Of a stretch of DNA of 64,000 bases, positions 15,061-17,239 are shown one piece after another. The notes under the pieces were generated by a model. The model was not told the DNA's origin. It was given only the letters and a program-made list of their open reading frames with translations, and did no database searches. Position numbers and translations under genes: made by a program. Positions within the stretch are counted from its first letter, which is position 1, and the number at the start of each line of letters is the position of its first letter. The stretch comes from Candidatus Omnitrophota bacterium (GTDB taxonomy: Bacteria > Omnitrophota > Gorgyraeia > Aquiviventales > Aquiviventaceae): NCBI GenBank assembly GCA_023247255.1, contig JAHFGV010000005.1, positions 6,067 through 70,066 on the forward strand, read 5' to 3'.

Positions 15061-15131
15061 GCCGTTGACAGGCGTCAAGAAGCAAGGTATCCTTTTTTAT
15101 GGATTATCCAGAAGAAAGGAGGTGCGGTACG

Positions 15132-15392
15132 ATGACCAAGGGACTGGTGGCGCCGATATCCTCCAAGGGGCAGGTGACACTCCCAAAAGGTGTGCGCGAG
15201 CTCCTTCACGTAGAGCGTGGCGACTATATCCGCTTTGAGCCAAAGGTTGACGGAGTATGGGTCACAAAAATCCGGCTTGAGCCAGAGGGGTTCTCTGAGA
15301 ATGAGTGGAAGACCCTTGAGCGTTTAGCGCGTCAGAAAGGTAAGCGATACACCGATGCAAAGGCCTTTCTCAAAGATCTCGAAGCGCTCTGA
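15132..15392 (+). CDS. AbrB/MazE/SpoVT-fold antitoxin
   Basis: RBS gaaaggagg before ATG 15132. SSKGQVTLPKGVRE swapped-hairpin motif. Confidence 0.7.
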   Translation: MTKGLVAPISSKGQVTLPKGVRELLHVERGDYIRFEPKVDGVWVTKIRLEPEGFSENEWKTLERLARQKGKRYTDAKAFLKDLEAL

Positions 15393-15401
15393 TGCGTTCT
15401 G

Positions 15402-15680
15402 ATGCGTTATGAGCGCAAGCCATCCTTTAGCCGGTCTCTGCGACGTTTGCCCCCTGATCGGAAGGTACGCATCAAAGATGCGATTCGCAACCTTGTGATC
15501 TTCCTCGAAACCAAACAGCAGCCGCATGGGCTTGGCTTAAAACGTCTGCGAGCAGACTACTGGCAGGTGCGGGCAGGATTGGGGGATCGGGTTATCTTCC
15601 GACTGGTCGATGACCTCATTGAGTTTGTGATTGTTGGGAGTCATGATGAGATCCAACGGTTTCTACGTCATTCCGTTTGA
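15402..15680 (+). CDS. RelE/ParE-superfamily type II toxin
   Basis: 92 aa. KRLRADYWQVRAGLGDRVIFRLVDDLIEFVIVGSHDE matches the RelE/ParE core pattern. Sits directly after the antitoxin. Confidence 0.7.
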   Translation: MRYERKPSFSRSLRRLPPDRKVRIKDAIRNLVIFLETKQQPHGLGLKRLRADYWQVRAGLGDRVIFRLVDDLIEFVIVGSHDEIQRFLRHSV

Positions 15681-15711
15681 ATCGTCGGCACGGCCGAGGC
15701 CCTCAAGTGAC
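15681..15711 (+). repeat. Imperfect direct repeat of the atpG 3' end (15030-15060), marking the insertion boundary of the toxin-antitoxin cassette
   Basis: aatcgtcggcacggccgaggccctcaagtga versus aatcgtcggcaccgcggaagccctcaaggagtga. Confidence 0.55.
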
Positions 15712-15721
15712 ATGAAGCCTA

Positions 15722-15800
15722 AGTGAGGGGCACGGGGAATGGAGTACGGGGAGTGGGAAGACAGGTTTTTTTCCCGCCCCTTGTCTCCCGCCCCCCGCCC
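15722..15800. repeat. G-rich/C-rich foldback element (same family as 3288-3550 and 479-560)
   Basis: gtgaggggcacggggaatggagtacggggagtgggaagacagg-ttttttt-cccgccccttgtctcccgccccccgccc. Confidence 0.5.
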
Positions 15801-15823
15801 TTTGTGATTACGGAGAGTACAGA

Positions 15824-17239
15824 ATGGCTGACAACACCGGCGAGATCGTGCAAGTCATCGGGCCGAGCGTGGACATCCGGTTTCCAGCGGATCGTCTGCC
15901 CGCCATCCTCAATGCCATCCGCATTGATGTTTCGGATCGCAACAGCCACCTCACCCTTGAGGTGGCCCAGCACGTGGGTAACAACACCGTCCGTTGTATT
16001 GCGCTAGACTCAACCGATGGCCTCACGCGCGGGATGAAGGCCTTGGATACCGGGGGGCCGATTACGGTTCCGGTCGGCTCTCAGACGCTGGGACGCATCT
16101 TCAACTTGCTTGGAGAACCCTTGGATGAGCGCGGGTCTTTGGCTGAGACCCAGCGTCGCTCACCCATCCATCGCTCGCCCCCATCCTTTGAAGAACAGTT
16201 GCCTGTCCGGGATATTTTCGAAACCGGCATCAAGGTGATCGACCTCTTGGCGCCTTACCCAAAGGGCGGCAAGGTTGGGCTTTTCGGTGGCGCGGGTGTG
16301 GGAAAGACCGTAATCCTGATGGAACTCATCCGCAACATTGCGACGGAGCACGGAGGAGTCTCCGTCTTCGCCGGTGTCGGTGAGCGGACGCGCGAAGGAA
16401 ACGACTTGTGGCTTTCGCTGAATGAATCCGGAGTGGTCAGCAAGACGGCCCTTGTCTTTGGGCAGATGAACGAGCCTCCGGGGGCGCGTCTGCGCGTGGC
16501 CCTTTCCGCGCTCACGATGGCCGAGCATTTCCGAGACGAAAGCGGACAGGATGTGTTGCTCTTCGTCGACAACATCTTTCGTTACATTCAAGCAGGCTCA
16601 GAGGTATCCACACTCTTGGGACGGATGCCCTCAGCCGTCGGGTATCAACCCAATTTGGGCACCGAGCTGGCGCAACTTGAGGAGCGCATCACATCCACCA
16701 AGCGAGGCTCGATCACGTCGGTCCAGGCCATTTACGTTCCGGCGGATGATCTCACCGATCCGGCACCAGCCACGACGTTCTCGCATCTGGACGCCACAAC
16801 CGTGCTCTCTCGCCAGATCGCAGAGCTTGGCATATACCCGGCGGTCGATCCTCTGGACTCCACCTCTCGGATCCTCGATCCTCGGATCGTCGGTCAGGAG
16901 CACTATGAGGTGGCGCACGCGGTCCAGCATATCCTCCAGCGATACAAAGACCTCCGAGACATCATCGCCATCCTCGGGATGGATGAGCTCACCGACGACG
17001 ATAAGCTGATCGTCTATCGGGCTCGCAAGATTCAGCGGTTCCTCTCGCAGCCGTTTTTCGTCGCCCAGATCTTCACCGGCCAGAGCGGCCGTTACGTCAA
17101 GCGTGAGGATACGGTCAAGGGATTCAAGATGATTGTAGAAGGCCAGATGGATTCCATCCCCGAACAGGCCTTCTTCATGCAGGGCACTATCGACGAGGTT
17201 ACGGCTGCAGCCGAGCGGGCCAAAAGTAGTGTTCAGTGA
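15824..17239 (+). CDS. atpD: F0F1 ATP synthase subunit beta
   Basis: P-loop GGAGVGKTV. 471 aa. Confidence 0.95.

Follow-up and report, generated by a model that had tools for sequence, protein, structure and literature searches.

The ATP synthase operon of a Candidatus Omnitrophota bacterium carries, between its atpG and atpD genes, two small genes that have the appearance of a type II toxin-antitoxin pair. The window analyzed here is a 64,000-nt stretch of contig JAHFGV010000005.1 (assembly GCA_023247255.1); it contains a complete F-type ATP synthase operon on its + strand, and in this operon 763 nt, with two small open reading frames (ORFs) inside, separate the gene for the F1 gamma subunit (atpG) from that for the F1 beta subunit (atpD; Table 1). 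We consider it probable that the two ORFs are a genuine type II toxin-antitoxin cassette with its own promoter, a member of an old clade at the atpG-atpD junction that has been kept in some descendants. The system is of a known kind, type II with a toxin of the RelE/ParE fold, in an unusual and conserved setting. Sequence comparisons indicate that the pair is a long-kept resident of an essential operon, present in at least ten other groundwater Omnitrophota lineages, and not a one-off insertion. In the literature that we searched, no toxin-antitoxin pair has been described from an atp operon, and preprints on Omnitrophota genomes offered nothing relevant.

The original prediction, made from the DNA of this window, regarded a cassette splitting the gamma and beta genes as unusual and proposed that the atpG-atpD spacing be compared in related genomes. 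In the 78 related loci that have atpD next after atpG, the aligned stretches of the two genes are 6-573 nt apart, against the 763 nt of the window, and the measured spacer is 2-96 nt in the five closest relatives (L001-L004 and L008; atpG 59-63% and atpD 81-87% identical to the window). Ten further lineages share the arrangement. In the loci of the five closest relatives, which have plain atpG-atpD junctions, neither the antitoxin nor the toxin found a match. An exact-protein look-up of AtpG with the chosen start codon gave no match either, and the best relative in a homologue search with AtpG was at most 66% identical, so that no near-identical empty site could be found. Both junctions of the cassette are real and not the product of misassembly, because three independent assemblies contain them too: L082 (Logan, SRR14366787) matches the window at 100% identity across 15007-16252, L081 (ENA) is identical across 15022-16347, and L083 (ENA) differs at four sites, being a strain variant with two synonymous changes in the toxin gene and the replacements V44I and N57D in the antitoxin.

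Both ORFs are intact in the window, and they have the layout of a type II system, in that they are small, adjacent and co-oriented with the antitoxin gene upstream. The antitoxin passes the cut-offs of PF04014 (MazE_antitoxin; 26.2 bits, cut-off 24.7) and of TIGR01439 (NCBIfam, AbrB-family domain; 32.9 bits, cut-off 28.3), which upholds its earlier identification as an AbrB/MazE-type protein starting with the ATG at 15132 behind a ribosome-binding site (RBS). A swapped-hairpin DNA-binding domain of the AbrB/SpoVT/MazE kind makes up its N-terminal part, its C-terminal tail is conserved, and the orthologues embedded in other atp operons are 58-71% identical to the window copy. The antitoxin stop and the toxin start overlap by 1 nt in ten of the ten relatives read at this junction. 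The two genes of the window are 9 nt apart, a gap caused by a 10-nt tandem duplication, which also creates a decoy ORF of six codons (15392-15412) overlapping the toxin start; judging from this arrangement, the decoy probably lowers translation of the toxin.

For the second gene product, the earlier call of a RelE/ParE-like toxin is borne out by the predicted fold. In the RelE/ParE fold, a pair of N-terminal helices packs on an antiparallel sheet. With the AlphaFold model (mean pLDDT 90.9, pTM 0.80) as query, Foldseek returned 31 matches at E ≤0.001 from the Protein Data Bank (PDB), and nearly all of the 50 matches listed, the weakest few excepted, are toxins of the RelE/ParE superfamily. The top match is RelE of M. 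jannaschii (3bpq_B, TM 0.70), followed by YafQ, YoeB and mycobacterial RelE/RelK; structures of HigB and ParE rank lower, and RelE, YafQ, YoeB, HigB and ParE all match the model with a probability of 1.00 and TM 0.65-0.70. The assignment to this family accordingly comes from the modeled fold and not from a hidden Markov model (HMM); PF05016 (ParE_toxin) matches 10 of the 27 toxin family members at E ≤0.1, with a best E-value of 0.0021. Since a profile of the 27 toxin homologues, run against 1.84 billion proteins, finds only 383 clusters at 50% identity, the toxin appears to fall in a small subfamily outside the current family models. The residues K47, R48, R57, R63, R67, H81, D82 and R86 are conserved in the family, and these basic and histidine residues, together with the matches to ribonuclease folds, make the prediction lean towards an mRNA endonuclease of the RelE kind and away from a ParE-like gyrase poison.

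The toxin family comprises 27 clusters at 90% identity. Among the members with readable context, all toxins at least 68% identical to that of the window are encoded between atpG and atpD on Omnitrophota-like contigs, and those at most 60% identical (L089, L090 and L096-L120) have no atp genes nearby. Besides the window, ten further lineages have the pair in their atp operon (L084/85/93 with L086; L087; L088, GCA_023247285.1; L091/92; L094; L095; L121; L122/123; L124/125; and L126). Neighbour-joining analysis of the concatenated antitoxin and toxin sequences places the atp-embedded pairs in one clade in 84 of 100 bootstraps, and L096, a pair outside atp operons, is sister to this clade. The ratio of nonsynonymous to synonymous divergence (dN/dS) lies between 0.07 and 0.30 in the antitoxin gene and between 0.07 and 0.17 in the toxin gene, denoting purifying selection, and synonymous sites (dS) are saturated between the window and every other lineage. 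The ranking by antitoxin identity follows the ranking by atpG, a comparison limited to loci with full-length atpG: L084/L092 are closest, then L088, and the window and L087 are the most distant. These sequence data indicate that the association of the cassette with the atp operon is old. They show one cassette lineage that took up residence at the atpG-atpD junction of an Omnitrophota clade in the distant past and has stayed under purifying selection in some descendants, and a related pair at another locus (L098) that has the same layout.

The regulatory DNA of the cassette is conserved with it. A putative promoter of the sigma-70 type begins 4 nt after the atpG stop codon of the window, and 1-4 bases after it in most lineages; the pattern TTGAC(A/G)-N17 (rarely N18)-TAT(C/A/T)CT is found at the same place in the ten further lineages, with single variants TTGGAC in L087 and TACGCT in L121. 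The inverted repeat over its -10 box is degenerate in the window. A perfect palindrome of 6-8 bp is present in six of the nine relatives scanned, L087 is altered on both arms (GAAATAAG/CTTATTTC), and some family members have extra AAGTAAG half-sites downstream. Promoter and palindrome together have the usual layout of an antitoxin-repressed promoter, which suggests binding by the antitoxin. No terminator was predicted on the + strand in 13900-16000, and only 11-12 nt lie between the toxin stop and atpD in L094 and L121; the cassette is in this way an integral part of the operon, and on the terminator prediction its promoter should also drive atpD and atpC.

How the pair may have entered the operon can be read from a direct repeat at its edges. 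A 31-nt near-copy of the atpG end had been noticed at 15681-15711 after the toxin gene, and the duplicate is real, although it ends at 15710: 15027-15054 and 15680-15707 are identical at 25 of 28 positions, a score (z = 12.5) reached by none of 200 shuffles of the downstream flank. In the reading frame of atpG, the three mismatches all fall on third codon positions and change no amino acid. The right copy starts at the last base of the toxin stop codon, encodes IVGTAEALK-stop and ends in AAG TGA, whereas the live gene ends in AAG GAG TGA (...IVGTAEALKE-stop). Because ...SEIVGTAEAL(K/R/Q)-stop is the C-terminus of 36 of the 36 closest gamma subunits, and the live atpG of the window is one Glu codon longer than all of these 36, the downstream copy appears to be the displaced original end and the live end the derived one. 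The sequence 3' of this remnant resembles the native atpG-atpD spacer, in that L001 shares the TTGTGATTA motif and L002 and L003 have hairpins there. Direct repeats from the 3' end of the target flank the insert, and the atpG ORF is restored, with one extra codon. With cassette-free junctions in five close relatives and a copy that keeps the ancestral C-terminus, the view that the duplicated end marks an insertion holds; not all relatives carry the pair, several have a duplicated end, and the antitoxin passes its HMMs. Two other roles for the remnant were considered. It lies in frame after the toxin TGA, but reading through it as a toxin fusion was rejected as a general explanation, the remnants of L088 and L095 being out of frame; a role as the RBS of atpD was rejected for the window, where the remnant is 113 nt upstream and atpD has its own GGAGAG.

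Among known systems, RelBE, DinJ-YafQ, YefM-YoeB, HigBA and ParDE resemble the cassette in their two small co-oriented genes with the antitoxin first and, as in its relatives, overlapping stop and start. RelE/ParE-type systems further share the fold, as judged from the matches to RelE, YafQ and YoeB, and possibly a promoter with a palindromic operator, the palindrome of the window being degenerate. The cassette differs from them in its antitoxin, which is of the AbrB/MazE type and not of the ribbon-helix-helix (RHH) or Phd/YefM type, and its toxin lies outside the Pfam, NCBIfam and PADLOC cut-offs. MazEF and PrlF-YhaV have the same N-terminal swapped-hairpin DNA-binding domain in the antitoxin, but the partner toxin here is neither MazF nor YhaV, and the PrlF match is far below its cut-off. 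Integrative and cis-mobilisable elements insert into the 3' end of a gene, rebuild it and leave direct repeats (attL/attR); the cassette is similar in its repeats of the target 3' end, the restored ORF, the empty sites in relatives and the serial accretion seen at L098, and dissimilar in its size of ~650 nt, the lack of a recombinase, the choice of a protein gene in an essential operon as target and the age of its genes at the site. Chromosomal integrons carry toxin-antitoxin gene cassettes that are likewise small, promoter-bearing and inserted as units. The repeats flanking the present cassette, unlike those of integron cassettes, are host gene sequence, and there is no integrase nearby; no attC-like site was noticed at the cassette, though a formal attC search was not made.

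We propose that the cassette inserted into the last ~10 codons of atpG, about 31 nt before the stop. The incoming DNA would have brought a replacement atpG end (...ALKE-stop) with the cassette promoter directly after it, and the original end (...ALK-stop) and the native spacer would have been pushed beyond the toxin gene, hence the direct repeat. An integrative element, or a single crossover of the Campbell type, leaves this layout when it integrates at a gene's 3' end. The antitoxin would then repress the TTGACA-N17-TATCCT promoter through the palindrome over its -10 box, and, no terminator being predicted, transcription started here or at the upstream atp promoter would continue into atpD and atpC. 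Free toxin would arrest growth, most likely through ribosome-dependent mRNA cleavage as by RelE, YafQ and YoeB. Cells that lost the cassette, for instance through recombination of its flanking repeats, would thereby be penalised. The cassette-free relatives would have lost it. Toxicity, repression, read-through and addiction are all predictions from sequence. The window copy is possibly attenuated, but not decayed, as suggested by its degenerate operator, the 10-nt duplication, and the toxin replacements E55Q and F35L at sites where conservation within the family is 90% or more.

Several observations weigh against this proposal. The toxin scores 19 bits against PF05016, under the cut-off of 23, and it has no NCBIfam, PADLOC or PDB-sequence match; its toxicity and its neutralisation by the antitoxin are predicted functions. 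The degenerate operator and E55Q may mean that the window copy is partly inactive, and the strong hairpin before atpD could attenuate read-through. Viral contigs and plasmids yielded no relative of the toxin. The cassette has no integrase within it or close by, and the integrase found at L089 has no relative in the 64-kb window. In the atpG and atpD trees, which are nearly star-like, loci with and without the cassette are intermixed, a pattern that either several losses or locus-specific transfer could produce. Lastly, a single old insertion fits neither the 27/30 identity of the window remnant to the live atpG end, given saturated dS, nor the differing lengths of the remnants among lineages.

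This last point deserves a closer look, as the remnants look far younger than the cassette genes. Besides the window, a remnant of the atpG end follows the toxin gene in L088 (35/45 identical to the live end), in L095 (20/30, with the same 10-codon length as that of the window) and in L122/123 (13/14); seven of the eleven cassette lineages have no detectable remnant. The remnants of the four lineages (L088, window, L095, L122/123) cover 45, 31, 31 and 15 nt of atpG, each starts -2 to +4 nt from the toxin stop, and each has the stop codon of its own live gene. The Leu codon agrees with that of the own live gene in three of the four, including the rare TTG of L122/123. Because dS is saturated, a neutral relic of one ancient insertion should by now be randomised. 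A young scar could result from gene conversion by the live copy 650 nt upstream, from cycles of excision and renewed integration (by way of the direct repeats or of a trans-acting integrase), or from selection on the remnant.

Repeated re-integration is the alternative that we take most seriously, if only tentatively: a small mobile unit without a recombinase, with the atpG 3' end as its attachment site, would excise through its flanking repeats or by a trans-acting integrase and re-enter by single crossover, making a fresh duplication each time. It overlaps with the proposed single old colonisation and differs from it in how often integration occurs. It would account for remnants much younger than the genes, for their start close to the toxin stop despite differing atpG length, for their agreement with the own live gene in stop and Leu codons, and for the patchy presence of the cassette among close relatives. 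The three synonymous differences in the window would be as expected if both copies had evolved as coding sequence before joining, and the atypical extra codon is in the live end, the remnant being canonical. Parallels exist as well. At L098 (81-5207), whose toxin is 55% identical to that of the window, a gene for an 867-aa protein, of unknown family, has a toxin-antitoxin island at its 3' end, in the order 867-aa gene, DUF2283 pair, ~240-nt copy of the host 3' end, AbrB/RelE-like pair with the same type of promoter as the atp cassette, ~55-nt copy, and AbiEii/Rv0078B-like pair; by eye, the copies are about 93% (~240 nt) and about 70% (~55 nt) identical to the host end. Two successive cassettes are each followed by a copy of the host-gene end. 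The related pair of L089 adjoins a tyrosine integrase, and within the window a tRNA-Asp fragment flanks another toxin-antitoxin islet (see below). Between L081 and the window, 7 of 22 positions differ at 15000-15021 and 0 of 1326 from 15022 on, a switch at the left edge of the repeat; the atpG end of this co-occurring strain is clearly different (L081 1-22, ...RQAAITKEL...), and the switch would stem from recombination at the conserved end of atpG or from a strain chimera that the assembler made there, which blunts its value for the re-integration idea. The same idea has to contend with the monophyly of the atp-embedded pairs, their deep divergence and their rough congruence with atpG, with a cassette that encodes only two small genes (15061-15680) and no recombinase, and with the lack of any circular junction or of viral or plasmid copies among the sequences found. 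No atpG-like remnant was found beside family members outside atp operons, most cassette lineages have no remnant at all, and the match of remnants to their own lineage is not unique once ties are counted: among 14 live ends, that of the own lineage takes first or second place for every remnant, but three of the four rankings contain three-way ties. If excision is ongoing, the empty site would read atpG ...GCCGAGGCCCTCAAGTGA straight into CATGAAGCC, and the circular junction would join the toxin end ...CATTCCGTTTGA and the atpG-end copy to GCCGTTGACAGG.

A more elaborate version of events, which we hold with little confidence, is that the cassette is specialised on the nearly invariant last codons of atpG and persists and spreads among Omnitrophota without a recombinase of its own. 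Loop-out and re-entry by single crossover, made possible by the flanking atpG-end copies, or capture by a trans-acting integrase would renew the scar each time; the autoregulated promoter would also serve the beta and epsilon genes, and turnover of the antitoxin during stress would tie growth arrest to the supply of F1 subunits. Still less probable, in our view, is a domesticated regulator, in which the pair acts as repressor and partner, the internal promoter tunes beta and epsilon expression, and addiction has been lost. The position in a core operon, fixed across deep divergence with both genes under purifying selection, would suit such a role, as would the conserved promoter directly upstream of atpD and atpC, the toxin-atpD spacing of down to 11-12 nt and, in the window, a toxin altered at conserved positions with its translational coupling broken. 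At least five close relatives with a plain junction nevertheless show the pair to be dispensable, its architecture is that of an ordinary type II system, and the wider family occurs at unrelated loci, including a toxin-antitoxin island and the site beside an integrase. Hardly any weight can be given to a recent one-off insertion, or an assembly artefact, peculiar to the window genome. In its favour are the good preservation of the repeat, the absence of the cassette from the five closest species-representative genomes, and the G+C content at third codon positions (GC3), which at 0.54-0.60 in the two cassette genes is a little lower than in the atp genes (0.58-0.71, or 0.63-0.71 with atpB left out), but the orthologues at the same position in ten further lineages and the three assemblies with both junctions speak strongly against it.

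Toxin-antitoxin modules are usually viewed as fast-moving accessory genes, whereas here one lineage of them stays in a core bioenergetic operon, over a divergence that saturates synonymous sites, with purifying selection and with its regulatory DNA kept. Such long residence offers a natural test case for what keeps chromosomal pairs in place: addiction, their position (a deletion that extended into the neighbouring atpG or atpD would kill the cell), or a role gained for the host, for instance as an internal promoter of atpD and atpC. Together with the parallel at L098, the duplication of the atpG end points to a 3'-end-rebuilding route for very small cassettes. This route may be a frequent one among uncultivated groundwater bacteria, with their small genomes. 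For annotation, it matters that current family models miss this toxin subfamily.

Table 1. Coordinates of the cassette, the ATP synthase operon and other features (positions in the window unless a locus is named).
Feature	Position	Strand	Remarks
atpB	10077-10928	+	
atpE	10957-11199	+	
atpF	11261-11773	+	
atpH	11941-12489	+	
atpA	12494-14038	+	
atpG (F1 gamma subunit)	14164-15060	+	PF00231, 264.5 bits; C-terminal alignment
Left repeat copy (live atpG end)	15027-15060	+	AATCGTCGGCACCGCGGAAGCCCTCAAG then GAG TGA
Putative sigma-70-type cassette promoter	15065-15093	+	TTGACA-17 nt-TATCCT; 10/12 consensus matches
Operator-like inverted repeat over -10 box	15080-15098	+	AAGCAAG-GTATC-CTTTTTT; degenerate against family AAGTAAG-N5-CTTACTT
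Antitoxin, 86 aa	15132-15392	+	PF04014, TIGR01439; RBS GGAGG 15118-15122, 10 nt upstream of start
10-nt tandem duplication	15390-15409	+	TGATGCGTTC/TGATGCGTTA; splits antitoxin stop from toxin start
Toxin, 92 aa, RelE/ParE fold	15402-15680	+	AlphaFold model and Foldseek
Right repeat copy (apparent displaced ancestral atpG end)	15680-15710	+	ATC GTC GGC ACG GCC GAG GCC CTC AAG TGA
G-run/C-run hairpin	about 15725-15802	+	fold; in what looks like the native atpG-atpD spacer
atpD (F1 beta subunit)	15824-17239	+	PF00006, PF02874, PF22919; RBS GGAGAG 15812-15817
atpC	about 17321-17611	+	
DDE_Tnp_4 transposase	21135-22136		inside tRNA-Asp-bracketed islet
177-aa membrane protein	22279-22812		inside tRNA-Asp-bracketed islet
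RHH antitoxin	23124-23366		inside tRNA-Asp-bracketed islet
ParE_toxin	23359-23637		inside tRNA-Asp-bracketed islet; 28.5 bits, above cut-off
Homologous small membrane protein	L088 2512-2969; L095 745-1216; L122 727-1119; L124 1609-2034		

The second toxin-antitoxin pair of the window lies further downstream in the islet listed in Table 1. A fragment of tRNA-Asp, from the anticodon stem to the T-arm (21069-21106), is a 36/38 copy located 2.7 kb upstream of the intact gene (23769-23842). The two bracket a small islet (21069-23842) that has a piece of its target gene at its edge. Insertion with rebuilding of the target end seems to be a recurrent entry route of small cassettes into these genomes.

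A G/C-rich foldback element before atpD, which the original prediction had described as following the near-copy of the atpG end, is real. It looks like a generic, dispersed REP-like repeat and not a part of the cassette, because a similar hairpin exists elsewhere and cassette-free relatives carry spacer hairpins. The 143-nt toxin-atpD spacer folds at -58.4 kcal/mol, marginally better than shuffled sequences (z = -1.87), and an Rfam search of 13900-16000 gave no family, only sub-threshold microRNA-like hairpin noise. The second G-run/C-run hairpin of the same style is at 476-560, in or between ORFs near the start of the window. In the cassette-free L002 and L003 the atpG-atpD spacers are filled by hairpins with AGCA or ACAGC motifs. 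An AGCA-rich inverted repeat occupies the atpA-atpG spacer of the window (14006-14140), with the atpA ORF extending ~10 codons into it, and a similar AGCA-rich stretch (14735-14800) encodes the variable loop of the gamma subunit.

The atpG-atpD junction region is an insertion hotspot. Four Saccharibacteria loci (L019, L031, L032 and L051) have atpG-atpD gaps of 348-573 nt, far above the usual, and there may be other small inserts at the junction in this unrelated phylum. Between the cassette and atpD, four lineages encode a small membrane protein (123-154 aa, ~30% identical, motif GxGxLxxRxWxRxL), a motif weakly shared by the 177-aa membrane protein of the tRNA-Asp islet. L084 and L092 have a signal-peptide protein in its place; signal-peptide-like ORFs (87-137 aa, VERW motif) flank the cassette in these two (L084 1917-2180 and 2841-3254; L092 about 1863-2264), one of them overlapping the 3' end of the toxin gene. 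L087 has a 133-aa gene with 23S_rRNA_IVP/bAvd Pfam hits (4377-4778) inserted between atpA and atpG.

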